DNA from: Phoronis australis
Taxonomy: Eukaryota; Animalia; Phoronida
Direction: 5' to 3'
Length of the DNA stretch: 64,000 bases
NCBI GenBank assembly: GCA_002633005.1
Contig: NMRA01000712.1
Coordinates: forward strand, 1-64,000
Shown here one piece after another: positions 12,156-45,300 of the stretch; the first letter of the stretch is position 1, and every line of letters starts with the position of its first letter. Made by a program: the position numbers and the translations under genes. Below the pieces are notes generated by a model. That model searched no databases, had not been told where the DNA came from, and saw only the letters and a program-made list of their open reading frames with translations.

Positions 12156-12360
12156 ATGGAGATTCAAGGCGTAGTGATTGGCGTGGTTATCGTCGTGAGT
12201 TCCGCCATTATTCTCTACTTGATCTCCCTCTGGGGGTTCAGAGAGAAAACTTACGACGAGGTGATCGCCGAACAACGCCAACAGAATGAAGCGGCCCTAG
12301 CTAAGAGCCGAGTGGACAAGGATAAAAGCAAGAAAAAGTTCAAGCATAAGAAAGGAAAAG
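12156..12360 (+). CDS. RRBP1: RRBP1-like coding exon 1 (signal-anchor TM plus Lys-rich region)
   Basis: Acceptor TCACAG at 12146, ACCATGG Kozak context, donor at 12361. Confidence 0.92.
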
Positions 12361-21300: not shown

Positions 21301-24300
21301 ATCAATATTAATGAGAAAACAGATACTTTTTTGCTGTTGACTTGAGGTTTCTAGATCAGTCGGGATCGTGAGCTATTATTGTTTCATGGGAAATACAAAA
21401 CACATGTAGTTGTAGGTAGTGAAACCAGATGAATTGTGGGAAATTTAAACAGTTGCAACAGCAATGTAGATTGAGGGCCATCTTGTCGAGACATGTTTTA
21501 GATATTTTTATGTTTTTCAAGTCATGCTCTTTGATAATTCATCAAATTCTAAGTTTTTCCTCTGTTTCTTTTCAGTTGTGATTAGTTAGAGTAGGATAGA
21601 AATAGAGTTATTAGGGCGAGTGAGCCGAGGTGTTGACTGAAGTGATAGCTGTGGCTGTTCCACAAGAAACATAAAACGTGGCAAGTTGTAGGCATTTCTG
21701 ACAGAGGTCAGAGGTCACATGTCCACATGTTGCACAGTTAGGGAGCTCAGCATGATCCTGTTATCTTGCTGTGTTTGCCTGGTGCTGCTCTACAATGTTG
21801 AGTCTGTGTGCTTGTTAAACTTGTGTTTGTGTAAAACAACTGTAGTGTTGATAACAGACTGACATGGTGTGTCATCTGTGGATCTGAAGAGCTAGAACAT
21901 GCTTCACAAATGACCTATGGCGTATTTTGACCACAAGTTTCAATTTCCACCTGTGTGGCAGCTGATCAGCTATGATTTTTAGGAGATTTAAAAAGGGGTC
22001 TATATGAGTCTATGTTTAAGAGAAAATCTCCAACTCTTTAAGTTTGAGAAAAAAACTCCAACTCTTGACTTGAGTTCTAAGTTACTGCACAAGTTAGAAA
22101 AGTCATAAGGATGTGAAACTAGCCCTGTTCCTCTGTCATTTGTGCACAAGCCTGATGTTACCATAATCTGGGTATGAGAGCATTGTTTAAATAGCACACG
22201 TGTGCACTTTTAATAACTATTCGTCCTTCTGAAGCTGATTGATGTTTTAATTGAAGGGTATTTTAAGTGTTCAGATGTTCGGGAATAATTTAACATGTTT
22301 TTTAACGTTCAATGAATGTTCATGTGAGGAGTGTGTCACGGATATTCAGTAGTGCTTGTTGAAACTGATCCTGTATTCAAGAGTTGTTGCTGTTGAATTA
22401 AAAATGAGAATAAATCATTCTTCACTGAAAGTAATAGCCTTGTTATACTGGGTTGGGCAGTTTATGGATAGACAAAACTGTGAACAACAGATGCACAATG
22501 AAGTGTGTGAGACTGCATCAAACATAAACGCATAGTGTCTAATATAATAGGAATAAAATTGATAACTGGTGTAATTATAGTGTAATCATGACTGTGGGTG
22601 TGGTTTTGTTAAATGGACATCTCCTTTTTACGTTCTACATAAGACGCACATTTTAAACCAGGTCACTTGCCTACGCAAAGCCTGTCTCAAACCTTTGTTC
22701 AACAGGAGAGAAAATTATTTCCATCCCAGAACTGATCGTTCAGGGCTTCAACAAATGGAAAAGAGTGTTGAAAATTAGCAAAATTAGACTGCTTCGTATT
22801 GGTCGTATGTGATCGCTGACAAAACGAAAACAAATTTGTTGGCAAGGGATATTCTGAGACTAATTTGTGAATTAGAGGCAGTCGGACTGTTTAGACTGTA
22901 AGTTGGCCTTTAAATAGAGCAAAACACATTGTTTATTGTTTTCATTGGGCAGTGTAAATATGAAACATGATATTTGATAATCGTCAGTCTTTAGAATGGG
23001 TATTGAAAGTTGCAACTTGTAGATGGCCAATTAGTGAAATGTAAATTATTAACAGCTGTCGTCACATTATTGTAGAACTGATGAGCGCTGTCAAGTCTGC
23101 CCCTTTCAATGAGGCGGAGTTGCAGAGTATGATTGACATCTTGTTGGACAGGCAAGGAAGTTCATCCCAATGGATGAAGGTAGGTTTCTGGCTCTCAACA
23201 AGTGTTGCATTATTCCCCATTGTCAAACTTAGACGTAGACTTGATGAGCTGTTTTGCTGCCAATCAGCTTGCTATAAGCTTGTTTTCATTCTGTATACTC
23301 TTGTTCAGATCCGTACTTAGTAGGGCAGTGCTGAATTACCCAGCAACACTTTAGTGTTGTGGTATTTACCCACAATGCTGCAACATTCATCAAGCAGTTT
23401 TCTGGCCTCGTTTTCGAGGCATTGTAGTTTCTCGTGTTATTTGTTGGTGCCTTGTTTTTCAGTTCTTTCTCGACTGCATTAATAGTTTTCAACCTTCTAA
23501 ACCCAGCGAAGTTTTACTGCTGTGCTGTGGGCTGCAACTCCGACCGCAGAAAGTTGGATAAATTTTTAAATAAGTATCCATGGATGCAATATTTTACAAC
23601 ATGATTCCTCAAATCATCCCGACATTCCTAAAACAAAGCCAATGTTACTGCGCATTTTCCTGTCTCTAGGTCAAAGGATATTTCTATGCAAGACCGTCCT
23701 ATTAGATATTAGAAGCAGTTGCTGTCGGTTGGAATTGGCACTTAGAATCTGTCCAATTGTTAAAAGGCCATGTCTACTTAATTTTGATATCTTGTAAAAG
23801 TCAATAAGTTGATTGAGCTGATAATGCAAACTGCAAAATTTCACGTGATTATTCGCCACTCTACGAATATGCTGTGTATTTTACGTTTATTGAATTTCCT
23901 ATTGTTCACCAACGTTTTGTGAAATATAGCGTATTCTTGCAAAATTCCCAGTTCACCACATTGCTAAGAGCAGCTTCCTACTTTTTCATGGATTCCATTA
24001 ATCTTTCCCCCCACGTAATGATCCTACCCCTCACGTAGTGATCCTACCCCTCACGTAATGATCCTGCCCCTCACGTAGTGATCCTACCCTCACGTAATGA
24101 TCCTGCCCCTCACGTAGTGATCCTACCCCTCATGTAATGATTCTTGGGTTATTATGTTCTTCTTGTTACTGTTTGGTTACCTTGCAGAAAACTCAAAAGG
24201 GGGACCCACTGACCATCTTAAAGAAACAATTGGAAGAGAAAGAACAAGCCCTAGCTGATGGTATGTAGAGTAGTTGGGAGTGAATAACCTTCTGATAAAC

Positions 24301-27300
24301 CACTATGGTTTGCAAAGTTCAAATGGCATGATCTGCTTCAAGGTCATTTGGTAGATGTTTAGAACTGGAGAAATCTCGTTCGTCACGTCAAAACAATTTT
24401 GAATTATGATGACACGCAGCCCATACACATCTCGATATCTTTATGAAACGACTGTTTTCATTATTTTTGCTAGTTAATACATAATTAATGTAGATTTAAT
24501 CCTGCAATGTCTATTTTCTCAAGAGTTCCTTCTGGTTTGTAGCATTTTTCTTTTTGAACTTTGTATTTTACCTTGAACTGTGTCTGATTCCTGTCTGAAA
24601 AAAACTATGACTCTTAAATATAAACAATTAATATGTAAATATCTGTTGCTGTGATGTCACTCCATTTTCATTGCCATGAAGGATGTCCAGTGCATTCACG
24701 AGTCAAAAATGCCAGAAAATCACAATGCTGGACTGACCCACCCTCAGTTCTGTTGAAATTGATGTTATGTCACGAAAAATTAAAACCTAGTTTGATGGGC
24801 TTAAACCAGCTATTGACCATGTTTTGTCAAAAACTACTTTTTTCAAAGTAACGTTATCACCTGGAAATCCCTTGACCACCGCATTGCTTGGGTGGTCATA
24901 CCAAGCAGACGTGTCCTAGCAGACATGACCAAGCAGACATCATGAGTGTAGTCTGAGACAATAACTCAATGTCTGTTCTTCTCAAGCCTAGATGTCGTTT
25001 GTAGTCTGAGTTGGGAACAAGATGAGCCTTAACCAAAAGTTGTCATTTTTGACAGAAGGCACGGTTATATCGACCCTTTAAAAGAAAACTAAGCCCTATG
25101 TTTTGGTGATTTCAGCCAATCCTGGTTCTGTCCACTGCTATTGCACCATTAGTGCCTCATTTGAGTGATAATAACAGCACTCTATCAAAAACACCTACCG
25201 TGAATTTCTGAAAATTCGTCCATGGGTGTATTTTCAGAAAATTTTTCTAAAGTATGTCCATGAGCGTATTCTCGGTAATTGTTTGCATGTTTTCAAAATC
25301 TGGGCCCAGATGCATAAAAGTAGTGCGCTGCATAGCAACAATGACATCGCATTATCATGCGCCACGTTGTTATTGTTGAACAATGCACCTGACATCATGT
25401 AACAATCATGCAACCCTGCCCTGGCAGATTGTTCTGTTAGCATAGCAAAATTCTTACTAGTGAGATACAACTGCATACATTAAAAAGGACATATTTATTT
25501 CAAAAAACTTAACAAACAATGTTTGTTTAGCAAAAACTTCACAACAAAATGTTTGACACAAGTTTCCCAGAATACACCGCCTTTCCAAAAATATGCCCGG
25601 TTTCATTTGATGTTTTTGAAGTGTCGTTTTCCCATTACCCGCACATGGGCCTATATTCGGAAATTTGCGGTACTCCGTGTCATAAGATGTGTACCGTGTT
25701 TCTTGGTATTTCCCCACAGTTGCCATGTAACTCACCTAAAGTATAGGTCATGCTTATATGAATATGTCAATCTCAATATGGCGAGCGAAATGTGTTGTGA
25801 ACATTTTAAGTCCCGTCAGCACGCCACCTGTTGGCCACATCATGTGACCTAATGAGTATAAGTCTGAAAAGATTTCTGTCCACGAGCGGGACTCGAACCC
25901 AGGACCTTCACCGTCCTGGGTTCGAGTCCCAGTAATGCTTGTAGAAATAGCAGACTAAGTAAGGAATCTTCAAACATCCTCCAGACATTTGAGGGCTGAC
26001 GAGTGTTACATAACATTGTTTTCTATTGGACAGCAGGATGGGAAAGTCCTTAGTACCTGTTAATATCCTAAACCGGGTTTAGTATCCTTTTAAGTTTACA
26101 AATTTCACGTTTAAGCAGTAAGTGGAAAGGACATGTAGCTCTAAACAATGATTCCATTTCCACCAGGGCAACAACAGGTGGCATCAGCCAACAACCGGCT
26201 GAAGGAACTCCGTCAGGAGCTGACTGCAGAGAAGACCAAGAATTCGGCCATGGAGAAACGACTCAGCGAGAAACTGGCCACGCAGACGCAGGAGATCCAG
26301 GCACTGCAGGTGCGCATGAAGTCGACTCACGAGCAGCATGTGGCGGAGGTGAACACGTTGAAAGCAGCTGCGACGGCAACACCCTCTGGTGGTGGACAGT
26401 ACGATGGTGGACAGGGGGCAGCAGTGGTGCAGAGACTAACGGAAGAGAACAGGCATTACCAGGAGACAATGCAGTAAGTGTCTGGAAGGTGGCGCCAGTG
26501 GTGTCTTCACTTGGACCTGGGTCGAATTAATTTCAGATTGGAAACTTAATTGTTGCATTATATGAGGAGAAATTAGAGTTTACTCGAAGCATGCCATACA
26601 TTCAAACAAATTTCAGTTCGAGTGCAAAGATCAGACCCAGGCCCTGAACAAAACAGTTTTGACGAATCTCACCCAAGATCCAGTTCCTCAAAAATCTTTA
26701 AACCAAAAAGTTAACGGTTCATCGAGTTTGTCACTAGAACCGATGTGATTGCTTGCTCATTGACATAGTAAGCTCATTTGGTTAAGAGTGCTATTAGTGG
26801 TCACATTACACATCCAAATTCTATACTGGGATCCTGTGGACTACCTTCAAATTTTTTTGGTGTCGTTTTCAATTTTTTGAGATCCAATGATCCGGAAATG
26901 GTAAAGCTAGAATAGAAAAATGCCATAAGTATATTGGAACATTAAGGTGAATCTGGTGATACTGTTATTAAAAGATGCAAGATACTAGAAGATAAACAAA
27001 AAATGAGCTGATGGTTTTATTTCTTTAATTTTTTTTCTTACTACTGATCAAGCTGCATCCAAGGTGGCCCACCCATGAACTCAGTCTGACTCTTGTTTAG
27101 CTTAATTGTATCAAATGACACAAAAAACACAGCCTTGGGCAAACACTGCAGTTTCATTTGAAAGTTGAATATGTCTGGAGTTTTTCTGCTGTTCTAGTTC
27201 TATTTCATTTGGGAAATCCGTGTTGCATATCAAACTACCATTTAACTCAGTGTTGTAACTGTCAAGTAGTCCTACTGTTTGCATATGGTGCTTTTAAGAG

Positions 27301-30300
27301 TTCAAAAGTATCATTACCCTGTTTTTGTCATTCAAAGGTCAGAAAGTAAGTTTCTCTTCTGAGAACGAGTTAAAGTTGTTTAGCTAGGCGAGTTTCTTTT
27401 AGGTTTGGTTAGATCTCACAAGGTCAGGCTGGTGAAACCAGAGGTCCTATTAGTGTGGCTTGTGCTCCTAATTCTACTAGCGTACGGCACCAAAATGACA
27501 AATACGCCCAATGTTATTGAATAGCTATGCTGAATTGTTTACTTTAATTTGTGAATAATTTATATAGAAATACTCAGAATACTGGGCTGTTTTGATTTTG
27601 TGAGCGAAGATTTTTCTAATCATTTGTGTTGTGAATGGCGGGGTCATTATACCAACGGTTATAATGACTGTGGAATTCTTATCTGACTGGTCGTTATGTT
27701 CTCCTCAGCGTGGCTCAGCAGGAGGTGAACTCATTGAAGAGCCAACTGCAGATTATTCAGACGGAGATGAGTAACAACGTACGTAACCTGACGGCTGCAG
27801 ACAGCGCAAGGAAGGCTGCGGAGCAGAAGTCGGCCATGAAGGATGACCAAGTGAAGAGGCTGGAACAAACTAAGGTACATCAAGAGTTATCGGGAGAAAA
27901 TGACTTGAGAATCTCAGTCACGAAGGTCGAGTCCTAGTGGAGTTCATCATCAGAGGAGCTAGAAAGACTAGTCGTCGTGTGGGAGACGTTAATTTGTACA
28001 CTTAGTTTCGGGTGTAATGTGGGATGAGCATTGGCTAATAGCTTATGGAGGGCCGTAAATGCGGTACTTCTGTGGGAAGTCTAAAATAAAATCACTAAGG
28101 ACCACTAGTTTTTCCATTTGCCACCAGTCATCTCCATATTACCACCTACGTTTTTCACGGAAAAATTCTCGAATCTAGCGTGTTTGCATCATGATATCGC
28201 GAGGCGAAATTTTTGCACTTCACCAGTCTTCAACATGGTGGTGACTAGCACAATGGTCTGGTACATTTCTATTTCTTCACACAAGAGCAGGGCACTCCTG
28301 AGTGAGCTGTTGTCTGTGCATCACTATTTGTCTAGGGTTGTCTCGATCTCGTCATTTTCACCCGCGCCGTACGTCGCCTGTTTTAGGAGGAGCTGACCAA
28401 ACAACTGCACCAGTACGAGCACCGTGCCAACACACTGAGTAAGGAGAACGAGACGGTGGCAGCACAGAAACAACAGCTGGAGAACGAATGTGCCAACATG
28501 CGCAACCGTCTGAACAACGTAGAGGCCTCCGCCGGTAGCAAGGTTAAGGTAGTGACCAATTTATATTTTAAGATGTCTTTAAAAATCTTTCATGTTATAC
28601 CCAAGCTATTATCAAAGAGTATCACTGAATGTCAAAATTTGTACACAGGAAAGACTTTACTGGTCATTGTGGCTCAATGAAAGTAGTTCACTAATGAGAT
28701 AACTTTGTTGTGGAGATGACAGTTTTATATAAGTGGAAATAGAAATATTCACTAGATGTGCTGATGGAGTGCATTTAGTTAAGATGGGTGTCTTGAGAGT
28801 TAGGCGAAAACATGCATCTCTCATTGAGAAATCGTGTGTATTTCAGTCGTAGCATGTGATCTCACTGGCTTTCAATGACTGGTGCCTAGTGTTATTGACT
28901 TTATGTCTTACATGCAATGTTGCATTAATGACAAAATGGCTGATCAAATACCTATCCTGTTAAGAAACGACCGAGTATGTTGCGACAGGATACCGAGAAA
29001 GCCCTGGGTGATCTGCAGACTCAACTGGCGTCTGCCAATGAACTGCTGGCCGGCCTGCGTAAGACAGAGACAGAGAAAGCGGCAGAGATCACCAGCCTGC
29101 GTCAGGACAACCAGAGATTGGCTGGGGAACTGAAGGTGATGCAGGAGCGCCCGGTGGCAGCGCCAGCACCAGCTGCAGTGAACGGGGACCTGCACCAGGA
29201 TGAGGCTACACAGAAAATGTACGTGGAGTTGAGCTGAAGTGTAATGATCTTAATTGTCTTGCTTTCTTCTTTGGTTTTGTTCATAATCCGTTTGGTTTGG
29301 TTGATTTGCGATGTTTGTTTTCATGAAGAAATGTAATGAAGTAAAGTTCGTTTGTGCTCAAAGATGATGATTTATCCTAGTAAGCATTTTGCAGTTTTCG
29401 CGAGCTCACGCTGAGGCGAGAGTCTAATGCTAACCTATGGCTGTGTTTGGCTTCATTGCCTGTTCTACCACGTGTTTTGTGAAGGTTGACAGACAGCCAG
29501 AAGGAAGTGGAACAACTCAAGCTGGAGGTACAAACTAAGGCGACAGAACTGAACAAACTTGGTGAAGATCTGGCTGCACAGACAAAGAAAAATAATGTAA
29601 GAAGCCAGACTCTTTGGCAGCACGTGGCTTATAGATTTCGCTAGGCTGAATAAAAGTGAACAAGTCAGTCAAAAGCTGTACATTTATGTCTAGCTGATTA
29701 AGCATATGTACATTGAATGTTATCATGAAATCTGATTTGGTTAAACGGTGGCATATTTTTTATCAAGTATTTTTAAATTTATACTTCTACGCCTCACAAT
29801 ATGCTTTTTCCTTGTGAGTGTTTTGCAGTGAAGTTATTATGTTTTGCACAAATGATAAGATGTTGGTTGATCTATCTGTTCAATCTTTGCTGACAACTGA
29901 CTTGTTTGCTGCTTGTGGTGTTTTACTTTGGCTCAATTAAGCACCCAGGTGTCTATTAACTTAGGACTGATTGCGGTTTTGCAACGCCTCACACTCTTGC
30001 AATAAATACCTTAACCCTGGCACTTAATTGAGCTAATAGAATAGACGGGGCCATCAAGGAATTTGTTTTGTGCTTGCAGAACCCTACGTTTCTTTCATTA
30101 TAGAAACAAGACAAAGTGCTACTTTTGATATTTTGAAAAACAATCAGCAGCTGCTTTTGTTGAAAAAACTGTAGCGTGTTTTATGATTTACTGCTATTCA
30201 TCAAACCAATCTCTATGCTGGATTTATTTTCTACAATTTAAGTGACAAAAATAAAATTTGGGTCTTCAGTATTTTAATTTTGTCTTTACACAACACCACT

Positions 30301-33300
30301 GTTCATCTGGACCCTGAAAAGTTGCAGACTTGTTCACGGCTTCTCGTGTTGTCATACCTTTAATGTTACTATTTAGACAGAACACTGAAGGCACCCTCTC
30401 TTAGTTGACCAATTGTTCACGGCATAAGTATGGTGCAAAATTATACCAAATTCCTTATAGTGGTGACAAACCCTGGTGGGACTCCCCAGTATGGCGGTTG
30501 GTGCGAGTGGAATTCAGCCTCTGATTGGCTAGATTAACTATTCGTGACTACAAATTACTCGTCGTGATGAAGCTTTGTCGTATTACAGTGTACATTACGA
30601 AAATCGTCTGGCTTAATCAATGTTATAGCGCAAACCCAGAAGAAAAACAAATGAAAAATAATGCTAAATCATTTCGAAAATTAGTCGATATTTTTTGTTT
30701 TTTCGAAATTTCAACAAATTTTCGATGAGAAGAAATGTTAACTTTTTAGAAAACTACTGTACTGTGTCTACAAGCTTTATTGGTGGTTATGCTCCGATCT
30801 TTATCTAGTTTGTGTGTGTGTGCGTGCGTGCATGCGAGCGCGCGCGCGTGTGTGTGCGAGCGCGTGTGTGTGGGAATTGTGTTACAAGTAGTTTTCTTCA
30901 CTCATACAGGAACTGCGGCAGAAAAACAGCAAAGTCATGGAGGCCCTCACGATGTCGGAAAAATCTGCCGAACGTGCCGTTCAGCTAAAAGCTGATGTTC
31001 ATGCCAAAAATGCCGAAATAGAACAAATTAAGCACGACTTGGACTGTCTAAAGAATTTGAACAATGTAAGCAGATGTCTGCTGTACATTTGTATCATCTG
31101 TTTTGTTCCGTTTTGTTTTTTGATCAGTGTCCAGTTTGTTTTTTGTTTTCAGGTTCTGTTGTCAATGTCATACATACGAAAGAATTCTTCAATTTGGGAT
31201 GAACGTACTTGCAAAAATTGCTTTTTTGTTTCGCCATGGTTACAGATGCTCGAAGTTTTACCTAATGTTTTTGGTGACAAAAGGAAAGTCCGTCGTACTG
31301 TGTCCTAAATTGTTGGAGTCCATCGAAATTGTGTTGTTACTAAACTGATTTTCAGTAAGAGCTTGCATTGATTGTGCTTGCTCTGCACGGAATTCAATTG
31401 GAGGTGTGCACATTCAACGAATTTATTGCAAACAACTCTGTGCTCTGGTGTAACTGCGTGAGGTTTCTGTTGGTTGTTGTTTTTGTTCGTTCATTGTTTG
31501 TGACTTATCTGAATGTTTCCTTTTTACTGACCAATATTTACTGGATAATTGATTAGACTGGTAGTTCCTGATTAGTTGCCCTGCCGGAAGATAACCAAAC
31601 ATTTAAAGATAGGTGTGTAATTTTATTAGCATAGACCTCCAGTGTGTGAATCTCACTCACTACTAACGCCTGGTGTGACTGTGTCTCTGAACTTGTCATC
31701 GATCTTTGGTAGGAGCTCGTACAGCAAGTGTCCACCTTAAGTTCTCAACAGTCGTCCACTGAAGAATTAGATAAACTAAGAGCCGATTTGAACAAGAAGG
31801 TAGGCGAGCTGACGAAAGTTCAAGCTGAGCGCGACAGTAAGTCATCGGAATTGTCAAAAGCTACCGCAGAACTGTCCGCCGTTCGATCCAGTACACAGGA
31901 GGAGCTGGCAAGACTCCGAGTGGAGAAGAAGAACGCATCGGCGGAAGTGGAGTCAGTGCGACAGACGCTGAACAACAAAGTGAAGGACCTCCAGTCTGAG
32001 ATGCAAATAATGACAAGGGAAATGGCCAGGCAGTCGGCCGAGCTGCAGTCCGTCCGCGAGCAGACGACACAGCAGAGTGATGATAACGGGGACGCGCTCC
32101 GCCGCAATCTGGCAACGTCATCCGAGGAACTCGCAGCAGCCAAAGCGGAGATGGAAGCTCTGAAGAAAGACAATGCCGTAAGCTTGCATGCTGTCCCAAG
32201 AAAGTCACGTGTCTCTGTTTTGTTGTTGTTTTCTGTTTAAACAAATTCACCTTTAGTAGACATACTGCACTACAGTACCAAATCTTGGCTGTTCTCTCAT
32301 TACCCTAAACGTGTTGTTTATATTTTAATATGAAATCCTAAGCATTAACATGAACATTATTTCACGTCAATAGTTTTCCATAACATTGCACAGGTGTGTT
32401 TCTGATTTTTCCTTTCTTGTTTACACCTTCATGTAAACTCTGTCCTGGTACTGTCGCCCTTCTGATCCTTTGGGTCTCGCTCTTCTGGTTAAGTTCAACC
32501 CGTCCCTCACCTTAGTTTTCATTTTTGTTCTCTTTCAACGTTGGTCAGGAGTTGCAGGAAGAGAGGCGGAAGTTGTCGGAGTCAGCGGCGCAGAACAAAG
32601 AACTCTCGAATCAGCTGGCCAAAGTGCAAGACGTGCTGGCGGCACGGTTGGCCGACGTCGACAACTTGAAACAAGAACTCGAGTCACAGTACCAGGCAAA
32701 AAATGTGAGCTTTACTCATCACCATCACTGCAATTATGTTTCCCTGTCTCTCATCATTCTGTTTGTTTTGTGCACCGCTATCCATTAATATCAGGTTGCT
32801 GCCGGCGTTTTGTTGACGAATACCTTAGTGCATTCTGTATTGGAATCTCATTTCTGTCCATTTCGATAATCCCAAGTTTTAAGTGCTTCTTGCGAAGTCT
32901 TTCAGCATACAGTGCTGCTATGTCAAAATATGTGCCATACCTCTGATATGCAGTTTTTGTTTGCCCTGATATAGTGAATCCACGGTGCTCTGTTCCTTAA
33001 AGTTAAAGGGACGTGATCGATTTAACTTACGAAAAATCCATTTTCAGAACAATTGTTGGATGGGATAGATTTCTTGAAGATAATTTCTTTGAGCAGAGCT
33101 AAAAACAACAAAATCTGTGTTGTGTTGTGTTTTTGTGGTTTCATTTCAAATTGCCAATCCTCATCATTATCTGCCAGACATTCGTTGATCGTAAGACCGG
33201 TGACTGCCGCTCATCAGTTGGGGTTTAGATTCNAGCATACAGTGCTGCTACGTCAAAATATGTGCCATACCTCTGGTATGCAGTTTTTGTTTGCCCTGAT

Positions 33301-36300
33301 ATAGTGAATCCACGGTGCTCTGTTCCTTAAAGTTAAAGGGACGTGATCGATTTAACTTACGAAAAATCCATTTTCAGAACAATTGTTGGATGGGATAGAT
33401 TTCTTGAAGATAATTTCTTTGAGCAGAGCTAAAAACAACAAAATCTGTGTTGTGTTGTGTTTTTGTGGTTTCATTTCAAATTGCCAATCCTCATCATTAT
33501 CTGCCAGACATTCGTTGATCGTAAGACCGGTGACTGCCGCTCATCAGTTGGGGTTTAGATTCATAAGCAAAGCATTGAATTGCGACCTCTGAGGTTGAAT
33601 TTGATTCCACATTGGGACTGATCTCGGAAAAACACTCGTCCAATCAATAATGTGACTTTAATAGAGACCGTGGAATAAAGGAGAAATGGTCATTTCTTTA
33701 CAATACGTAAGAAATGCGTGAAAATAGGAATGATTTAGTGAAAAGGATACCTTGTTAGGTAGTATACCTCTGAAGGGACAGGTGTTTTGGTTTCCCCATT
33801 ACTTGTATTGGGGATATTTTAGGCTCTGGAAGAACAATATGTGCAGGCTCGTCGGAGCTTGTCCGAGTCTGAGGGCTCCTTGGAGGAAGTAGCTCGCTTG
33901 CAGACATTACTCGAAACTAGAGATAAGGAGCTTCAGTCAGTGAAAGAACAACTGGACCAGGGTACCAAGCTTTCAGATGTAAGACTAAGCTTGTAGGCTA
34001 TTCTCTGCTAGTCTTGGTTTTCGAAGCTTGCTATAGTTATTAGTGCATGGATGTAGTATAATTTGGTAGGCAGTTGCTCCTATTCAGTTGTCGGTCAATC
34101 TCTTTTCAGCTATAAATACACAATTACAAGTCTGTTTTGAATGGAATTATTTGTGCATATTTAGGCTTTATATAACCTTTGAGCTTTTTGTAGCTTCGCA
34201 GTCCAGGGCCCTCACATACCTGAGAGGAAGGTGTCTGCCTTCTGAGAAGGGAATTTTTTGGTTGAGGGGAATTTTATCCCCCGGTTACGTCAAGTCCACC
34301 GCTGGTCACCATGCCACCCCTGATCGACAATGCTTCAAGTAGGCAAAACTTGCGTTTTGCAAAAATGGTTCTAACCTTCAGAGGAATTTTTTATCATGGA
34401 AAGGAAATTGTTGTTCCTGATGAGGGAGATTTCGCATGATTTTTAAATATTTTTCATAGGAATATGGGGCCAATATTCAGCCCAAAAATCAAGGGCCCTG
34501 CGATCCACGTAACCTGCTTGCATGGTATAGTGTAGAGGCCTCTATTCTTTCTCTGCTTACTAAGGTAAATAATGTGTTGTTGTTGTTCAGGTTCAATTCC
34601 TGAATTGGCAGGATTGGAGTTTGAGACAAGTTCTTTGTAATTCAGTATTTGCTGTTCAGTTTCATTGCTAATGCGTGCACCGATGTCGGAAAAGGATTTT
34701 TGAATGTCTCCGGGATATCCTGTATAGAATTGGAAGAATTGCATCAGCCAATGAAATGATTATCTCACAGCTGCTTTGTGCATGATGGCTTTGAATTCGT
34801 TTCTGCTTTCACCAACTTTGGGTTTCGTGACAAAGTAGGTTGGCTATGTCAGTTATTCTTTGTTGTGCTTTTATGACAATTACGATGTCAAGCTCGCAAC
34901 AGGAAGACTTGTGTAGGTTCGTATTTACTGTTAGTAGGTTAAATTACAGTAAACGTGCTGTATCATGATTTGATCTTGAGTTGGAACTTAAATTTATGCA
35001 TCCACATTAAATTTGTTTGTGTTGGCTTGTTGTGAAAACATATAACAATTTGCTGAAATCACGCATTCATTTGCTTCCATGAGCTTTAAAATTATTATCG
35101 CTTAAATATCAATGTGGGGTGACGTGATTTGACTGTTTTTCTCTCCCATCTCTGACACCAGGAATCTACTGACTTTGTATCGAAGTTCCGATCAGAGCTT
35201 GACTCAAAGCTCACCGAGATCCTTTGGCTGAGCGGTGAGCTGGAGACGCAGAAGCGGATCAACATCGTAAGCTCCATCGTTAAACTGAGCTTGACGCCAC
35301 CTGGCAACACTGTTCTAGTTAGCTGGACGCTCACGTACGCTTAGCGCAACGTTAACGACGCTTACTGTGGCAAGGCAGTGACAGTTGTTACTAATCTTGA
35401 GTCACGCAGACTAATGGATTGTATTTGGACACTTAGGGTAGCTGTATTTGCAAATTCTGAAGTGATTGGAAATTTTTTTTAAAACTAGTGGCAGCAGTTA
35501 CCCAAGAAGTGCCTACATTGTGGCAAATGGTATATTTTTACCTTAACGTCATTTAAAAAGTGTCAGCTGTGGCGTAGTATCTGGTTGTTGAGAGAAAAGT
35601 TCTACGTCGATCAGTCTATAGATATCTCTAATCACTTAACATCGAATTGTTTGAATTCACAATTTACTTATTCATAAGAAGTGTAGTTAATTAAAGTTTA
35701 CAATAGTTTAGAAAAGTACACCTTAATGTAGTTCTAGGCTGTCCTAAATATTTCAGATACAGTGAGTTAGTCATTTGTAAGAACATTGCGTACAGAGCAA
35801 TAAAACTCCTCTCTTCTGTTGTTCATAACTGATATCTTTTTTTAATTGAAAATGAATTCAGGTAAGACTATTTTAGTTCTGGTTGCAGGCTATTGGTTTA
35901 TATTACTTGCAAAAGCTGGTGACTAGCTTTGTCAATTGGAGTGGAGGTTTTGGGCTTTTTGCAAACACTGAAAGCCTGTCAGTAAATTCAGAGAACGTTC
36001 ATATTTGTTGTCTAATGATGCTCTGCTGCATTGCCAAACAATGCAAACAAAGATTTTTGAGCAAGAGTGTAATAGTTAAATTAGTTGAAATGCAATTTCA
36101 AATTAAGCATAAATGAATATTCACAGAGTTGAATAATGACCTAGAAGATATCACCTAACGCATGAGTTATGTTCATTTAGGATCTTCGAAATCAGTTATC
36201 CAATCGTGAACACGGTCGAATAGATGTAGTACAGTTGTGGAAGGAGCTTAACCAGCGACAGGCTCGCATTGATTTGCTAGGTGCTCAGTTGGCTGACGAA

Positions 36301-39300
36301 CACAATTGTAGTCACGTAAGAAGCCGTCACTCCATGCATGAGGGCTTCATTGTTTCACTGATTTGTGTTTTGGCACGGTTTTTATTCGCGCACGATGTGT
36401 CTGGCTGTAACGTGATTCTGAAAGGGAACAATGTATCAGTGCAATGGTCTTTCGTATATTTACTGTTACGGATTTAAATGTATGGAAATAGTTTTCATAG
36501 TTGAAGGGAAGTCTACTCAATAACTCAGACATACCATTATTTGCCTTGTCTGATGACTCGGTAATTTTTATCAGTTTCAGTTACATTGTTGAAGTTGTGG
36601 CTTGCTTACAAGCTTAACTACTGGTCATTGCTTATACTGATAAGATGTAGTAGTTCGTCAACTATTTCACAAGTTTTGGGCGTACACCCTCTAATACAAA
36701 AATCCTTTCTCACTTTCTTCAACGCATGGTCATTTCTCACTGCTTGAATCTAACATTAGGTTATATACTGGAAGTCCCTGTACACTCTCTCTGTCCCTGT
36801 CCATCATTCCTCTGGTCTCAATGAGAAGCTTTGGCTTTTTCAAACTTGGAGCCTTGTATCTGTAGATCATATCTGGAGATGACTTGAACTGAGTGCTGCA
36901 CTGTCTGCCAGTGTATCTTTCCTAAGATTTCAAGGTTTGGCTTGATCCAACTTGTAAGCTTCAGATCTGCTGATCATCGCATCTGGAGACGACTTGAGTT
37001 AGCTGCTTCACGGCGTGACTTCATGCTGATGATTTATGCTTTCGTTATTCACTGGGCAAAGTGCAAGCTTTCTCTTTTACAGCTGCAACAAACGCTTGGT
37101 GCGAGGCAACGTGTTTTTTTTTCCTTTCAGACCATTGCTTTTCTGTTTTGCATGTTGCATGACAGAGTAACGGACCGTGCTGTGGCATTCTCAGAGTAAG
37201 AGTGCTTGTATGAATTTGTGTTGCTGATTATCGATGTAATGACAGTCAAACTGTGGAGTGTTGTGATCAAGTTCAAAGAATGTATTTTAATTTTGTGCTT
37301 GCGTGCTCATCTAGGCTAATGCCCAGGGCGGTTACATGGGGAACCACAAAAATTTCAGGGTTGGTGAATACAATTCCAAAACATGGAAAGTGAAATTAGA
37401 AATATTTTGAAATTCTGGAGAGGGGTGGGTAGTTACTGGTAAAGTATATCTTGTTTGTTTTTAGTCTCTTACCTGTGTAGTCTTCATTAGCACTAATTGG
37501 TTCTCGTTGAATATAGAATTAATTTCTCTGAGCCAAGATTACATCGGACGTAGCTCTGCCCACCACAGAGGACAAGTGAACGTTTTTGTGCGGTAAGATT
37601 TAGCAGTAACACAACTGTTGTATGGTTTTGTAGGATCTCCGCCAAAAGAACTCTGTTGCCATGGAAGCTCTTGAAAAGGCTGAAAAGGCTGTTAAAAAGG
37701 TATGAAATAATCGCAAAAAGACCCTGATTGAATGAGCATCCTCATGATGTTATGTCCAAAATTTTTTCTGCCTTTTGATGAATGCTCTCTTTCTAAAACA
37801 TTTCTTTTCTCATGAATCGCAAGTCTTTTTAATCTGTGATAGAAGACATGAGTAAGGTGTGCGGGCGGGCGCGTGCGTGTATGTACGTATATGATATTAA
37901 AACAGTCTTTTGCGACTGTGTTCAACTGCCTTTCATGAGGTGAAGCAGTTGCTAAGAATAGATTGCTGTTGGTAGGATAGGAATAGAATTGCAGTTTGTG
38001 AGAAAAGACGGTTTTGATGGGGAAAGGACGTTTCAAGTGAAACAGTTGTTTCTCAAAGGAGCATTATAGTGAATCCCAGAGTTATGAATGTGCTCTGAAT
38101 GGTGAACTTTTTTTCTGACGCTAAATCTCTTAAACACTCGTAAACTGGAAAATGAATGCAGTGTCACGTGATTGTCCAACTAGTTGTTTTCCTTTATAGT
38201 GGCGATATGGTTGAACATGCTTTATCGCCACAGATGGTGATAGGGTATTTGGTGGGCAACGTTCTGTGCCACCTATAGTTCACCTTTTACGAGAACAGTT
38301 ATTTAAGTTAGGTGGACTTCACATGGTTGTTTATTAATTCTTCATGATCATCATGCCATTAAAATACCACTGATATACGGTGGGATATATAAATTATTCT
38401 AGCAAGAATGTTCATCATCGCAACATATCCTTGAGTGAAAGAAAGTGCATTACGTCTTTGTCAACTCTGACCATCTTACAGACAGAAATTCGATTTTGGG
38501 TCAAGCCACTGTAAAGAGTTGTGTATTGTTTACCATCAAGTGACCTATCGCAGGCTTCGCCCACTTGCGAAATGTCGACAATAAGTTTTACCCAACAACG
38601 TGTTGTTTGTCGGGTAAAATGGCGACTTGGAAACGAAGGTGTGTCAAGAATGCTGTGTTCTGATTGGTCATTTCAGCTGTCACTCAAAATCCTGGTGATA
38701 GGTCAATTGTGTTTTGTTGCTGTTGCAGGATTCCACCACTGACGATACTATGTACACCCAGGTCCTGTGTAGGTTGTTCCCCGACGTGTCTGTCTCGGCT
38801 GATAGTAAGGTGTGTAATCATATGATGTTATACATCTAGGCACAGTTGCTTATGCAGTATACAGTAGATAGTCACAGTGTCATCACACTATGGCACAATA
38901 CATTCTAATAGTTGAATGAAGCTTTTGAGGCCACATGATATAATGAAAGGTTCCTGTTATCAGAATAGATTGAGAGTGGGTGAGGCATGTTCGTGGAATT
39001 GACCTATCGCAAGCTCCGCCCCTTGGGAAATGTCGACAAACAATAAGTTTTACCCGGCAACGTGTTGCTTGTCAGGTAAAATGGCAGCTTGGTAACGAAG
39101 ATATGTCTAGAATGCTGCATTCTGATTGGTCAGTTCAGTCATCACTCAAAATCCTGGCGACAGGTTAATTGCTGTCCTATGAGATAGCGTGGGCTAGGGT
39201 CTGTAGAAGCAAATCTTCTCGAGGTATGGTTGTGTGTTACATGCAAAGCACATGATCACACTAGCTTATCTCACAAGTGTCTTGCGTCTGTGGAATGCAG

Positions 39301-42300
39301 CCCTAAATGCAGGCATTTCTGGGCATCCTGTTACACAGGCGCCACCTAGTGGACTTTTAAGTTCCCCTATAGAGTTTCATGTAACCAATCCTTGGAGATG
39401 GCTTTGCAACTGAGTTCACTAACTGAACTGAACTGAACTGAAGAAGTACGATTTTGAAGTCATGTCATTGGCTATCTGGTTAGAAAGAGTTGTTAATTCA
39501 TCCCCGCATTGGTTTGGCAAAGCAGTGGGACCCTAGAGAAGGTTTAATGGATTGTATGTATGTGCTAATGGCAAATGAGACACCATAGGATTGATTTTGT
39601 TTCATTCAGCTGCAAGAGCTTGACAACAAATTTTGCTGGATAACTGACCGTTAACTTCGAAATTTGAAAGTTTACTTGAAACTTGTCATGTGATTGGTCT
39701 ACTTTCGAGTGTAGTAGTTCTGTGGTGCTGGGCCTGAGTATGCTTACGTTGTGGTAAAAGCTTTGCTTTAACTAGGAATGGTGCATTGGTTGTTCAGATA
39801 GTTGATAATGACAAAAGGGCCGACTGAAGGTGAATGCATGCAGTTGCCATTAATACTAAGATATTATCAAGATCGCATGTCCTTGTTCATTGCAGTCCCC
39901 AGCATGGCTGTCGTCGTTTGAAAAAGAAGCCTCAGATTATTTAAAACAGCTACATACTAAGGTGAGTTTTTTAACTATGAGCTCGTTAAGCTTTTTATGC
40001 TCGTGTTATTTCATATGTAGTTATTATTAAAGTGTATCAATGTAAGCTTTTGATGCATTCACTTACTCATATAGATTGTGTTCTTGTTCTCGTCGTTTCC
40101 ATCTGGACAAGCGTTCACAGCCATGTCTTCCAAGCCCTTGAAGGATAGTCATGAAATTAGGCGAGTGTGTTGTTATGATGCTGAATTGTTCCTTCACCCT
40201 GGTTTGTCTACTCTTGCAGGGCAGTGATACTCAACAGCAGGAGTCCATTGAACATTACAAGGCAGTATTGGCTACAACGGTAGGCCCTCAACTGGTACTC
40301 TATATAGATTGTGCACCTGAATAATTCATCGTTTAGTAACATGAATTCAATGATTTGATTTGAGTTGATGACTAAAGATTGTCTATATTGTCTTTGATTT
40401 CTAGAATTTATGGTATGCTGATTAGTAGTGTTATCTTTTGGACTTCAGTATTGATTTGCTCAGAGTGTGAGTGTCAGGATTGCGATAGTACTTGAATCGC
40501 GAACTGATTTTGATGCCTGGAAAGCTTTTGTTTATGGCTTGCCTTCTTAGGAAGGCAGTTAAGACTGTTAATTGTATTCATGCTTCCGTCTTTCATACTG
40601 AAAGCATTAACAAGAAAAACATTCCAGAAGCGTGGAAAATAGAAAACAAAAATGCGTTTCCCTTTTCATGGCATTGAAATGCACAATTCATAATGTTATA
40701 GAAGTATGTTCAGGGCCTTCCACAAGAGGTGTTGAATGTGTCTACTGCGGTAAAGTCACTGATTTATAGTGTTGGTTACAGGAGGACATGCTGAACAAGT
40801 TGCAGAGTAGTGTGGAGTCTGAGGAGAAGAAGTGGCAGGCCCGCCTACAGGATGCAGAGAACGAACACAGTAGGACGAGGGCGGAGCTTAATAGCGCCCG
40901 AGAGGAGATGAAGCAGTTACGGGGCAGTACCGAAGTAAGTGAGAGGGCGGGGTTACATACAGGCTGTGGTGAAAAAAAGAATGCCTTTGGACGAGTGTGG
41001 ATCCGGAGAGTTGAAAATGTTGGAAAAGGGAAGGGAATTACGGGGGAGGAGAGTAAAGGGTGCCGAGGTGATGGAGTCGTTGGGGGTGGGTTGTGGGATG
41101 TGTTGAAGGGAGGCGTTCTCTAGCGCAAAGATGGAGGGTCAGTCAGGCAATGATTGGAACAGTTTCAGGACAATGGTGAGATGTGGGAGGGGCCATAGTG
41201 AACAGGAGTGTGGAGCTTTCTGTTGAGAGGTACAAGGTTTTGCAGGAGTATCTGGGGAGGCGTGGCCAGGGTAGGAGATTGGAGTAAAATGGAGGAGCTT
41301 CACAATATCAGGTAGAAATGAAATTTATGAGGCAGTGGGAGTTTTCTATGAAATTTAAGCAATTTGTTTCATTCAAAATAAACATTTTTAGAGGAAGTGT
41401 AAACTATACTTGCCTCGTTGCAGGCTAACAGGTGTTTGATAGATCAAATGTTAGGCTTGGATACGCTTTCGCAGTATATAAGAAATTTCATTTGTGTTTG
41501 ACTGCATTTTCAGTTTTTTTCCTCTTAACAGTAAGGCCTGTTTGTTTACATATGCTTTACTTTTGTGACTTGTGAGGTTAGGCATGTTACGTCTTTATTT
41601 CGTGTTTCATTTGAGCATGACGTAGGATCCTGTTAATGATTTACTTCGTTCGTTGCACACGCATGTCATTTCCTCCCAAACACGTGTCACTACATTTTGA
41701 TTTCCCATCGTTTCCCCCTTGATAGGATCTGAGTAGCGTGAATTTTGCATACCGGTGCGTTGAAAAAAGCCTGTCCACCATTTCCGAAGAGGTAACTGCT
41801 AGTCAGTGGAGTTAATAACAACACCTCATCTCAGGCGGGGTTCGCATGCTTCCTCTCTTTCAGACAGCACGGTCATTTCTGTCAATGACAGCGTTATGAC
41901 GCATTTCTTTTCTCACGAACCACTATTCTTTGCACTCTCTGACGAGACATTTCATTTATTTGTTGCTGTGTATCAAATCTTTCGGTTCATGAGTGAAGAA
42001 GTGTGTTTGTAGGAGCAGTCTAATGGTACATGTGAAAAGCAATACACAATATCTTTGATTAGGATTAGGTTTGTGAGAAAAGAATGCTCATGCAGTCTGT
42101 GAGGGTGGAAATATGCCTGCCCTGTCTTGTAGATACGGGGGTCGGTCCTGCATGAGTTCCTGGGTGGAGTCATTGTTAGATCATTCTGTGTGACCATGTC
42201 TCCACTAACTAAAACCTCGACACGGCCTGTATGCATCTGTTACAACGGTGTGTTTTAGTTTGTGCACGACGCATGGTTTTCCGTTTGTTGACGAGATAAG

Positions 42301-45300
42301 TTATTGTTACACCACGCCCACCGTTTGCATTTTGCTTTGTAGGAATCTGCATTCACTCGTTACGTTTTGTTTTGTTTAAATGGGGTTCAATGAATTTTTC
42401 TCACTACTCGTGTGCGTAACTAAATACTGCGTGAAAAACATGTCTTTTTTATGAATATTCAAATAAATTGTCTGAAGGTTTTTAAACCTTTATTAATTTC
42501 TTATTTGGTCTTACAATGTACTGTAAATAGTCAATTAAATAACAGTTTGTAAGATTTCTTGTATGCGAGTTTGTTGTCTAACATTGTTAAGCGATCGTTT
42601 TAGAACACCTGCATTCCAAAATGTTATTGTGTATGTGACATTTTCAACGAATCTTACATGCTGAGGGTGGTGCTTGCTTCATTTTGGAACTGCTAAAGTT
42701 CAAGCTACAAACTAGTTTTTATTAATATGAGGAGCTGGTGTTGATTCTTGCTCTTCAGTCAGTGTGAATAAGTTAAATTTGGTATTCAAGCACGTGCGTG
42801 CAAGCTGCTTACCTAAATGTCTGATTTAACATTCATTACTTACAAGGTGTGCTGTTACATATAATCTCTTTTACTAATAGCATGTATTAACAAAATTAAC
42901 TCGTAACACCTGTCAGTTTAGGGCTTTACGGAATGCTTGACAAAATAACCTTTTGCTACAATTGAAGATAAAGGTTAAAGTTCTCGCATTTAAACCTAAT
43001 AACAAGTTTTTAGATTCGCTGAGCTACTAACAACAGAATTGTCTAACTCATCTGTCCTCTATTTAACATTTCTATGCAGATTCCACTTACCCAGCTTAAG
43101 CGGTGCTCAGATCTTGTGTTCAAGGTGGGAGGTTGTTTTCTTTGGTTTTGGGTTCGGTAGCACTGGTTCACTTCGGTTGTCAGTGGCCCTCTCACGGGCT
43201 TGGTAATGGGCAAGGCTGGTTGTAGGGTAGTGCGCTTCAGAAGGTTTCTTTATCATTGGCCTGGGTTTTGTTAAATCCAACAGCTATGCACCAGCTACCA
43301 AACCGGTTTTTGTTTCGCACAAATGCAATTTCTTTCGCACGACAATAGCTGTGCGTTACTAGTGTTTCAAAAATGAAAAGTTACTTTGCCAAGAGACTTT
43401 GAGTACGATGACGTTTTGTCAACTGTTCTTGAAATACTTGGCAGGTCACTAGTATTATGTTGGATTTATGTACACACCAAAATTTTTATTCCATCCTTTG
43501 AGCATTTCGACTTCTATTTTTCCGTTTTCATTTTTTGCCTGAAATGCACTAAAGAAGTGTTTTTTTTTAAATCATTTGAAATGTACTGCCAGAATTTCTG
43601 ACTCTCAAAAACTTATGCTACTCACAATCGTTTTGTGAATTACGCAAAATTTAAGATTTTTTTGACCTTACAGAACTCAGATATAATATTCTGTAGCATG
43701 ACAGCATTAATTGGTATCTATACAATCAGTTGCATCGTTCCTTCTTGCTTTGTACAGCTTTGCTCATTTATATCAATTACAAAGAAAGCCTATCAACTTT
43801 AACAAAAACTATTTGTTGTGTCTGTAAAGGTACAGTGTGACTAACGACGAGTTTCAGGTGCCGTGACCAGGATATAAGTCTTTTTGTGGTTCTTATGTTA
43901 ATAGCGATTATACCTGCAGTTGAGCAATTTCTGTGAAAAACAGCCTTGGCTTGTCTTCCGGGAAGCCAACATTTAGTACTGTTGTGCTTTACAGTTATTT
44001 TCATTTCTTTGATTCGTGGCATTTGACTTCACTCAAGTAATAGTTGCGCCTATTGATATGTTGTCTTGTGTTCCAGATGGAAGATCGAATTAAAGATTTA
44101 GAACAGAGGCTACAAAATGTAGAGAAAGAAAAGCAAGATGCTGAATTGTTATTGCAGAAGGTATGACCAATGTGTGATGTTTGAGCTGAGCCGCGTCACT
44201 TTTTTCATTGACTTATTGCTTGTTGTTTTCATGTTGTGAGGATCCCTGTTAATATACAACAGTAAAATGATGCAAATTTCAGACAAAGAAGAGCCTTACA
44301 CGCTCTCTTTCAGTTTTCAGGGGATGCTAAAGTTGTTGTGAATGTACATAGTTTTTCTAAATATTGTCTGATGTTAGCTAAAGTACTGGTCTAAATCTGT
44401 CCCCTTGACAGAGGGGTTAAGGAAACTTTATATAGTGTGTGGAGAACCCTCTGAATATTCAAAAAGAAGTTGGAGATTTCTATTCTCTCACACATGAGAC
44501 AGGACTATTGCCGAGGTACCTTACCATCTGACCAAAGTTCCATCCAGTTGTCAAAAACATCAATAGCTATATTGAAGTCTGCAAGATACAGATACAACAT
44601 TACAACATAAACTCAAAGTCAAGACTTTATCGTATTCAGTTATTTTATTATGCAGCTGGATGTCTTAAATCTCGCGTTTTTAGCTTTTGACTGTCCTTTT
44701 CTCTTCATTCTAGCAACTAGATGAGGTCAAGTCACTGGCTGAGTCGCAGCAAAAGTCCAGTGATGAAACCATCCACAAGCTCCGTGCAGAACTCGTCCAG
44801 AAATCCAAGGTAAGTCCAACAGTGGCAGGGAAAAAAACAAGGCTTTCTAGCGTAGCACTACTTCACCCTGCCAGCAGCTTTCTTTCTGTTAGCTAGTTAT
44901 TTCAGTTAGTTCATGCCTATTAATTCTCACAATATAAGTTGCTGATCTATTCTTCTGTTGCTAATAGCTGTGTTATTGTTATTTTAAGTTGTTGTCACCG
45001 GTAGTATTAGTGTGTGAGTAGTGTTGACTGTTATGAATTTTATGTCGAAAAAGGAATTTTTCAAAGTTGAGCCACGTAGCTTTCGAATGGACTTGTGCAT
45101 TCCAGAGAACATTTTGAGTTGTGTCACAGCTCCGTTTACGTGCACGGGATGTGTTCAAGTATTCCTTAAGGTCATGTTAAGCACCATGCGCTTGTCTGTT
45201 GATGACAATGCAAATTGCATCTGTTGAAATTAATATCAGACTCTCATTTTTTGTGAGTAGTTTCGGTTTAAACAACTTGACAAAGTCCGATCTGGCTAAT

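Follow-up and report, generated by a model that had tools for sequence, protein, structure and literature searches.

The 64,000-nucleotide window analyzed here (Phoronis australis contig NMRA01000712.1) carries on its forward strand a homolog of RRBP1 and kinectin (KTN1; 12156..51799), for which we built a 26-exon model that is open without an internal stop. The encoded protein has 1251 aa with all inserts and 860 aa without them; it begins with a predicted N-terminal hydrophobic anchor and terminates in GTSV. Junctions from 26473 to 44714 are backed by RNA reads, while exons before 24188 and after 46492 are based on sequence and homology. The exon at 26169-26471 matches RRBP1-like/kinectin proteins with 44-49% identity (E 9e-11) in a HMMER search; a word-based search using one exon gave no match. 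In a tree built without the inserts, the model falls among lophotrochozoan RRBP1/KTN1 members, and homology along the rod assigns the gene to this family, which has one homolog in invertebrates.

On inspection, exon 1 encodes a hydrophobic stretch followed by a Lys-rich stretch; PF05104 scores 16.7 bits (E 0.016) on this exon alone against a cut-off of 25, and the rod is predicted to be anchored in the ER. Side-by-side comparison with bear kinectin places a stretch resembling the KTN1 CDR2/eEF1B site in the distal coil, in two forward-strand exons downstream of the array described below (40220-40279 and 40782-40934; site positions from the available parts of PMC12768868 and bioRxiv 2024.11.06.622207). 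The last exon (51749..51799, forward strand, modeled from sequence without read coverage) ends in GTSV-stop (51785-51799), a PDZ-type motif under the S/T-X-hydrophobic definition given in the available text of PMC5404927; its retention, reported in a preliminary description of this DNA, is confirmed in the sequence. GTSV is the C-terminal end in 108 of the 253 homologs of at least 900 aa.

Architecture of the exon array

Between positions 29596 and 37634 lie six forward-strand exons, A to F, that together comprise 1173 nt (391 aa) and are all phase 0-0, as had been proposed; each is bounded by AG/GT and open. They are preceded by exon U (29485..29596, forward strand), which ends in KKNN, serves as the donor choosing among A, B, C and Z and, by the rank test below, is the source of the tail half of the repeat; they are followed by exon Z (37634..37699, forward strand; 22 aa), the acceptor choosing among U, C, D, E and F. 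Exons A (30910..31065), C (32549..32704) and D (33823..33978) each have 156 nt and 52 aa. Exon A (33.2 bits) combines a Z-like head, bearing a second V2-like motif, with a U-like tail; D is a 52-residue repeat scoring 16.8 bits; E (35162..35266; 105 nt, 35 aa or five heptads; 23.1 bits) is mostly tail half; and F (36181..36315; 135 nt, 45 aa or 52 minus one heptad) is the most diverged unit. Exon B (31713..32177; 465 nt, 155 aa) is helical and made up of partial units; it has a periodicity of 14 residues, and its 3' end is U-like. The 52-codon length first described holds for A, C and D, but the reading of B as 3x52 is ruled out: the strongest autocorrelation signal lies at 14 residues, the 12 highest-ranking lags include none at 52, and profile matches within the exon are partial and unevenly spaced. 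The common phase was likewise correctly described but is not special, as 16/16 junctions from 29596 to the last modeled exon are phase 0, nine of them downstream of the array; shared as it is throughout this half of the gene, phase 0 is no evidence of modularity. An assembly artifact is ruled out by the divergence of the copies (17-36% identical) and the presence of all of them in reads, and pseudoexons are ruled out because all six are open and spliced.

The C-terminal halves of these exons, previously aligned by eye, are more similar than generic heptad composition accounts for, by a shuffle test and a rank test. For the 28 residues at the 3' ends of U, A, C, D, E and F, pairs average 24.1 by BLOSUM62; heptad-class-preserving shuffles average 0.9 ± 2.7 (0/5000 as high). 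When each exon was tested against 12 array-less proteins, the true U tail ranked best of ~1000 windows in 32/72 tests for A-F (C, 5/12; D, 5/12; E, 9/12; F, 2/12) and in 0/84 for seven control exons. Exon F (3.0 bits) and, by one test, exon C (10.2 bits) are weak repeats, the best control exon reaching 10.5 bits.

The repeat is a chimera, with a head derived from the downstream exon and a tail derived from the upstream one. Its pattern is kept and its sequence is not: later units are identical at 9-12 of 52 residues, DNA identity between copies is 27-40 of 84 nt, and no two exons were paired in a search for DNA repeats. Leu occupies position 2 in 15/15 52-mers, and the a/d positions are hydrophobic at 75/80 sites in the tail and 23/48 in the middle. 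Unit lengths of 52, 49, 45, 38 and 35 are all 0 or 3 modulo 7 (exon B is 1 modulo 7), and the exon junctions of the array are all in one heptad register. We propose that a single ancient duplication, whose breakpoints lay within exons U and Z, gave rise to a 52-residue Z-head/U-tail exon that would, with such breakpoints, be phase 0-0 and in register by construction, and that may then have been copied separately in each lineage.

Pfam searches of single exons returned generic coil families only. Exon B exceeds the HIP1 clathrin-binding cut-off (30.1 versus 28.8 bits), which we dismissed as generic coil likeness; in the ESM Atlas, exon A fell into generic coil clusters, and recognition was low. 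AlphaFold2 predicts exon B as a single helix (residues 2-154; pLDDT 95.5; single sequence) and, for the array of the nemertean Lineus, a helix that is continuous across 5/5 unit junctions and broken within units 3 and 4 (positions 15-19 and 19-23). Exon B and two Lineus units are predicted as unbroken helices, contrary to a hinge in every unit. In the arrangement that we envisage, the helix would run through each exon junction, with a soft point and a three-residue stammer in mid-repeat; because of that soft point, the insert, at most ~58 nm long, would behave as a segmented arm rather than a rigid ruler.

Splicing of the array and the V2 boundary

RNA reads contain 13 junctions of this region: 7/7 consecutive junctions and six skips. 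The skips, in raw reads of data sets X2-X4, are all GT..AG, strand-specific and found across two studies; the RNA contigs of X1 show U>B, D>Z and E>Z. Donor U (X2 + X3, n = 219 reads) is joined to A in 132 reads, B in 50, C in 13 and Z in 24; acceptor Z (X2 + X3, n = 208 reads) is reached from U in 24, C in 62, D in 34, E in 59 and F in 29. The full skip (29596>37634) that the preliminary description had predicted is present in 24 of the 219 reads from that donor, insert-bearing forms accounting for ~89%, and the skip junctions settle its further question of whether the exons are constitutive: they are not. No junction skipping exon Z was among the matches listed. Entry into the array varies (A, B or C), as does exit (C to F), and the exons are used additively and in a nested manner rather than as mutually exclusive alternatives. 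An extra A at the end of exon C in the RNA may be allelic. From the junction graph we derive inserts of 0, 52, 104, 139, 184, 207, 259, 294, 311, 339, 346 and 391 aa, with whole isoforms unphased. Because both entry and exit exons vary, these steps are uneven, in disagreement with the uniform ~8-nm steps envisaged earlier. Exons A to F are tandem duplicated, alternatively spliced exons: homologous, of the same phase and alternative in RNA.

By position and sequence, exon Z is identified as a homolog of the V2 cassette of KTN1. Bear kinectin isoform X3 (1328 aa, 29 fewer than 1357) is missing precisely the 29 residues that follow KKNN at 1030, and human V2 spans 1031-1059 (available text of PMC12768868). 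Identity to bear V2 is 12/22 for exon Z and 10/22 for exon A, at the same boundary; the copies at 30910 and 37634 are identical to each other at 12/22 aa and 37/66 nt. The V2 splice boundary is common to skip isoforms in molluscs, crickets, urchins, amphioxus and vertebrates; the V2 comparison in the available text of PMC12768868 is limited to vertebrates. There are thus two copies of a motif that had been described as split and doubled, but because the downstream exon is a V2 homolog, KNN|DLR is an ancient splice boundary and not the interruption of a contiguous motif. The full skip was also said to restore the motif exactly; it does so in position only, since the direct splice product, KNN|DLRQKNSVAMEAL, lacks the Trp of the family motif, which is absent from both copies. 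The correspondence of the doubled motif to kinectin V2, a known partner-binding cassette, had been overlooked.

The array resembles V1-V5 of KTN1, in-frame cassettes in the C-terminal coil of the same family and region, and sits at the 5' boundary of V2 (PMC12768868, available text). V2, however, occurs once, has 29 residues and contributes a binding site, whereas here six paralogous exons contribute up to 391 residues in nested combinations. Vertebrate RRBP1/p180 has an ER anchor, predicted here too, and likewise a long coil, a C-terminal TSV PDZ motif and isoforms that differ in repeat number, but its repeats, decapeptides numbering up to 54, adjoin the membrane (PMC5404927, available text) and those described here are 52-residue coiled-coil exons in mid-rod. 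Decapeptide repeats are absent from the 26-exon model, whose 5' introns are without read coverage.

Distribution across animals

A 52-residue array at the same site is present in RefSeq models, all automatic annotations, of two nemerteans (Lineus longissimus and Tubulanus polymorphus) and of Lingula anatina; Owenia has shorter units. These arrays are alike in site and unit and differ in unit number, with four in Lineus, three or seven in Tubulanus (two models) and at least four clear units in Lingula. Exon A is nearest to unit 1 of both nemerteans (ungapped scores 95 for Tubulanus and 79 for Lineus). A V2-like motif is kept in the first unit of the present gene, Lineus and Tubulanus, the first-unit copy being the only intact one in Tubulanus; the one Lingula model begins its array without it. 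RefSeq models show alternative inclusion in both nemerteans: those of Lineus comprise a full skip (X15), the first unit only (X14), the first unit skipped (X11) and all four units (12/15).

No 52-residue array was found in 39 mollusc species, 38 of which lack any insert, or in urchins or crickets. The profile scan of 177 long homologs is circular for the three training species, so that only its misses count, and it missed the shorter units of Owenia too. The question raised earlier, of whether the block is ancestral to all invertebrate orthologs, receives a divided answer: molluscs, urchins and crickets lack it, yet it is found outside this lineage and, judged from these models, is older than this genome. 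We found no published description of the array in the literature.

Possible roles of the insert

We favor, at a probability of roughly one half, a reading in which the six duplicated coiled-coil exons, through nested variable inclusion, form an adjustable extender by which distal docking sites are carried away from the ER membrane while the coil stays unbroken. Beyond the insert lie the V2-like exon, the CDR2/eEF1B-like stretch and the PDZ-type motif, and isoform choice would therefore set their reach to motors, translation factors or mitochondria; exon A would keep one V2-like copy at the distance it had ancestrally. A published proposal is that RRBP1 sets the 54-nm ER-mitochondria gap (PMC9717519, available text). 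Against the extender reading, the coil region of frog RRBP1 (~695 residues) would measure ~100 nm when fully straight, double the 45-54 nm of published gaps, so contour length does not translate simply into gap width. The similar junction use of X2 and X3 and the variant counts (both given below) and the exon B length of 1 modulo 7 also speak against it.

The coiled-coil molecular ruler of ROCK2 (available text of PMC4686654) offers a comparison in how the rod may work, with no homology: there too the coil pattern is kept over sequence, and the functional end is held away from the membrane. ROCK length is fixed across animals, whereas splicing varies length here within one sample; insert length differs within and among species, and the array lacks the length conservation of a ROCK-type ruler. 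Contrary to a ruler reading, a single sample contains a dozen lengths side by side, and the number of units changes from species to species.

An alternative that we regard as unlikely is that splicing controls a doubled docking motif rather than length, switching the number and position of V2-like sites, with exon A as the second site and the other units as decayed copies. V2 binds the QARS N-terminus and recruits the multi-synthetase complex (PMC12768868, available text), which, together with the identity of exon Z, the motif kept in three first units and the prevalence of U>A, speaks for such a site. The motif is nevertheless insufficient for complex binding, because human RRBP1 showed no binding to that complex (same source, available text) although vertebrate RRBP1s carry a V2-like motif. 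Both copies here lack the Trp, the Lingula model noted above starts its array without the motif, and a doubled motif leaves five further open, spliced exons unexplained.

It is also improbable, in our view, that the array is a tolerated, near-neutral expansion, in which an all-phase-0, in-register region takes whatever exon is duplicated, and weak competition between splice sites produces a mixture of forms that has no regulated role. The uniform phase from U onward agrees with this, as do independent Z+U duplications in Plakobranchus (82 aa) and Lingula (63 aa), the lack of any insert in 38 of the 39 mollusc species and the similar junction use of X2 and X3 (chi-square p 0.31 and 0.23; the samples may be alike, and X4 is too shallow for comparison). 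The non-synonymous share is higher in the array (8 non-synonymous to 11 synonymous variants, versus 3 to 12 in flanking exons, counting best-supported rows only), but not significantly (p 0.27). Against near-neutrality, the 52-residue unit, its core pattern and its alternative use persist in at least two other phyla after DNA-level likeness between copies has gone, and insert-bearing forms predominate at the U donor. That the diverged units serve as new surfaces for binding or as codes for dimer pairing, like kinectin V3/V4 for kinesin, such that isoforms would vary in their partners but not in their reach, is very unlikely: it has precedent in KTN1 V2 and V4 (PMC12768868, available text), later units are acidic, with net charges between -1 and -8, and exon C is on every non-empty path among the junctions listed, but later units cluster by lineage rather than one-to-one across phyla and their surface residues are not conserved, unlike those of a maintained binding site.

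A broader scenario, which we offer tentatively and consider rather doubtful, is that a single Cambrian-age exon fusion left nemerteans and lophophorates (perhaps annelids too) with an ER tether whose reach is dialed by splicing over ~60 nm, providing both a natural length series for testing rod length against rough-ER-mitochondrion spacing and a rare genomic change uniting ribbon worms and brachiopods without molluscs. We know of no natural length series in the RRBP1 rod of vertebrates. The present gene would offer about a dozen in-register lengths, and the idea that RRBP1 sets the distance between rough ER and mitochondria would therefore be directly testable. The array may likewise be a rare genomic change of use in spiralian phylogeny: if wider sampling holds, the 52-residue unit would be a discrete character for a radiation unsettled by phylogenomics. 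PMC13271739 weakly favors a (Mollusca, Brachiozoa) grouping, against which a grouping of ribbon worms and brachiopods would go.

The six-exon array and its nested splicing

The host gene, the single invertebrate RRBP1/kinectin homologue, was modelled within positions 11500 through 56500 as 26 exons on the plus strand (12156 through 51799), with no internal stops and a protein of 1251 residues with all inserts in or 860 with all inserts out. Exons upstream of 24188 and downstream of 46492 are based on sequence and homology; the others are present in RNA reads. The model bears out the six exons of the preliminary description in coordinates and sizes (A, 30910 through 31065; B, 31713 through 32177; C, 32549 through 32704; D, 33823 through 33978; E, 35162 through 35266; F, 36181 through 36315), and the array that they form between exons U (29485 through 29596, ending in KKNN) and Z (37634 through 37699) is a confirmed feature. 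All six are phase 0-0, as described; however, because phase 0 holds at 16 of 16 junctions from exon U to the end of the model, phase is uninformative about the array. A short tandem repeat with a ∼19-base unit (24040 through 24135) lies closely 5′ of the exon at 24188, and a candidate 6-nt phase-0 microexon (49832 through 49837; Arg-Met), with AG in front and GTAAGT behind, sits between the last two exons of the model, outside read coverage.

Four public RNA runs labelled Phoronis australis were used: three stranded raw-read runs from one study (X2 through X4; ∼18 to 19% of each) and one contig set from another (X1). In X2, 749 of 1131 aligned reads are ≥99% identical to the window. Splicing is nested; the U donor joins A, B, C, or Z, and the Z acceptor receives U, C, D, E, or F. 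The reads spanning each junction in X2, X3, and X4, respectively, number 61, 71, and 0 for U>A; 23, 27, and 1 for U>B; 6, 7, and 2 for U>C; 55, 71, and 0 for A>B; 65, 55, and 0 for B>C; 60, 36, and 5 for C>D; 30, 20, and 0 for C>Z; 23, 34, and 0 for D>E; 17, 17, and 0 for D>Z; 22, 17, and 2 for E>F; 32, 27, and 3 for E>Z; and 11, 18, and 1 for F>Z. The full skip from 29596 to 37634 (U>Z), predicted from sequence in the preliminary description, is seen in 16, 8, and 0 reads. The C>D and C>Z values exclude reads with one extra letter (8 and 7 in X2; 3 and 5 in X3), which are counted in the totals. No internal skip within the array occurs among these junctions in X2 through X4, which rank above three weaker rows in read support.

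The junction graph yields 13 paths and 12 insert lengths, from 0 to 391 residues; computed under assumed independence of entry and exit, the commonest inserts are 259 to 346 residues and the full skip accounts for 11%. Junction choice does not differ between X2 and X3 (p = 0.31 and 0.23), where C>Z makes up 35 to 39% of reads leaving C. The X1 contigs contain U>B, D>Z, and E>Z, with B-C-D as one unbranched piece; C>Z is missing or filtered there, which hints at sample differences, though contigs cannot prove absence. At 32698 through 32704, the six-A run ending exon C has an extra A in 15 of 105 (X2) and 8 of 64 (X3) junction reads, a frameshift that would end translation prematurely in D or Z; it may reflect a decaying allele or polymerase slippage.

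Descent and distribution of the 52-residue unit

Compared in fixed register, the 28-residue C-terminal ends of exons U, A, C, D, E, and F score 24.1 per pair versus 0.9 ± 2.7 for heptad-class shuffles, so that the repeat similarity first proposed for the exons holds. Exon B, initially read as 3 × 52 residues, instead has a periodicity of 14. Among 12 homologues without the array (∼1000 windows ranked per test), the true U tail ranked best in 9 for A, 2 for B, 5 for C, 5 for D, 9 for E, and 2 for F, and in 0 of 84 tests on seven other coil exons of the gene. The head of exon A matches Z at 12 of 22 positions. When units were scored against Z-head/U-tail chimeras built from six species without the array, the best switch point fell at residues 21 to 26 in seven of eight units and at 17 in exon C. 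The U-like tails, the Z-like head, and these switch points suggest that the array probably began with a fusion exon, the product of a duplication whose breakpoints lay within both U and Z. The foreign-unit profile (C, 10.2 bits; F, 3.0 bits; best control exon, 10.5) counts against a tidy repeat picture.

Units of this kind (52-mers) recur in other animals, their borders in Lineus, Tubulanus, Lingula, and Owenia being deduced from proteins. Lineus longissimus has four directly after KKNN; of the 15 RefSeq models examined (X1 through X15), 11 carry all four, X11 lacks the first, X13 and X14 have only the first, and X15 has none. Tubulanus model X10 has three units and X8 seven (52, 52, 52, 49, 49, 52, 52), at least four clear 52-mers can be recognised in the 477-residue insert of Lingula, and the units of Owenia are 45 and 38 residues long. 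An insert at this site is absent in 38 of 39 named mollusc species, including X1 models of chiton, two abalones, oyster, Biomphalaria, Littorina, and Aplysia (second paralogues of Nucella and Babylonia, without the anchor, were left out of scoring), and the array is absent from the urchin, cricket, amphioxus, and vertebrate proteins examined. In one arthropod-like protein, Z is followed by 88 added residues of another kind. In sea urchin models, the distal YxxVL stretch is present twice, and the second copy can be skipped. Sampling comprised one annelid and one brachiopod; flatworms, bryozoans, phoronids, and cephalopods had no named representative.

In a quick tree of 28 rows with inserts removed, the Phoronis protein falls beside Lingula, with nemerteans next (SH-aLRT 89 and 89, below the strong-support mark). 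A tree of 22 52-mers recovers three groups: the first units of the nemerteans (86/89), nemertean units further along the array (96/98), and exon C together with the Lingula units (88/88); A and D have no clear placement. This fits one founder 52-mer followed by separate lineage expansions. Alternatively, the arrays may have arisen independently at a duplication-prone site. Plakobranchus has a recent 82-residue Z+U duplication, unrelated to the 52-mer array, and Lingula a separate recent one of 63 residues with near-identical copies; both may be genuine or haplotype artefacts. Because these two clearly separate duplications have other lengths, a single 52-mer origin is favoured.

Heptad register, V2 homology, and proposed function

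Across 15 to 16 52-mers from four species, core positions 2, 9, and 13 are hydrophobic in 38 of 48 cases; 16, 20, and 23 in 23 of 48; and 26, 30, 37, 40, and 44 in 75 of 80. This pattern would make the unit seven heptads with a mid-unit three-residue stammer. Ser, Gly, and Pro constitute 19% of positions 15 to 24 versus 8% elsewhere, a segment picked post hoc, making the p value optimistic. All seven donor ends carry this core arrangement, and Leu occupies position 2 at six of the seven acceptor starts, so the register is kept whichever splice is used. AlphaFold2 without an alignment predicts helix across all unit junctions of the Lineus array monomer, with a mid-unit break in two of four units, and a single helix for exon B. 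The rise of a coiled-coil helix is 0.1485 nm per residue, from which we compute a maximum extension of 58 nm by the full insert.

Beyond the observed splicing, homology, and distribution, we infer a dimer structure, a reach, and any cellular effect of the array isoforms. We prefer the array as an adjustable, segmented extender over three rivals, at a probability of about 0.5; the CDR2/eEF1B-like stretch and GTSV are both distal to it. Motif dosage, concerning the V2-like motif, and tolerated expansion of the array both seem doubtful, and the creation of new binding surfaces quite improbable.

Exon Z is homologous to kinectin V2: bear, panda, and pigeon have kinectin isoforms from which precisely the 29 residues following KKNN are missing, and human V2 spans residues 1031 through 1059 (PMC12768868). 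The equivalent is also skipped in mollusc, cricket, urchin, and amphioxus models. The same source reports that V2 binds QARS and that human RRBP1 showed no binding of the multi-synthetase complex (PMC12768868). Both Phoronis copies of the motif (A and Z) are without Trp; the motif is kept in the first unit of the Phoronis gene and of both nemerteans, and in Tubulanus it survives nowhere else. A literature search, with most subscription journals outside its reach, found no publication on the array; the V2 alignment in Fig. S2 of PMC12768868 and the supplement of bioRxiv 2024.11.06.622207, in which the Lingula protein is used, may be relevant to whether it has been described.

Other features of the window

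The C-D intron contains a 330-base tandem duplicate (32904 through 33563; 326 of 329 identical) whose copies lie on both sides of the only N in the window (33233); the duplicate is likely an artefact of overlapping sequence in the assembly. Two repeat copies (38538 through 38709 and 38997 through 39171), 86% alike over 132 nt, lie either side of the exon at 38729 through 38809 and draw many RNA reads on both strands; they are probably a dispersed element. On the minus strand, exons of a Y-family DNA polymerase (Pfam IMS), which we take to be iota-like, occupy 3300 through 6070, and a TFIIS-type zinc ribbon exon, presumably of RNA polymerase II subunit RPB9, lies at 55083 through 55262, convergent to the RRBP1 gene.
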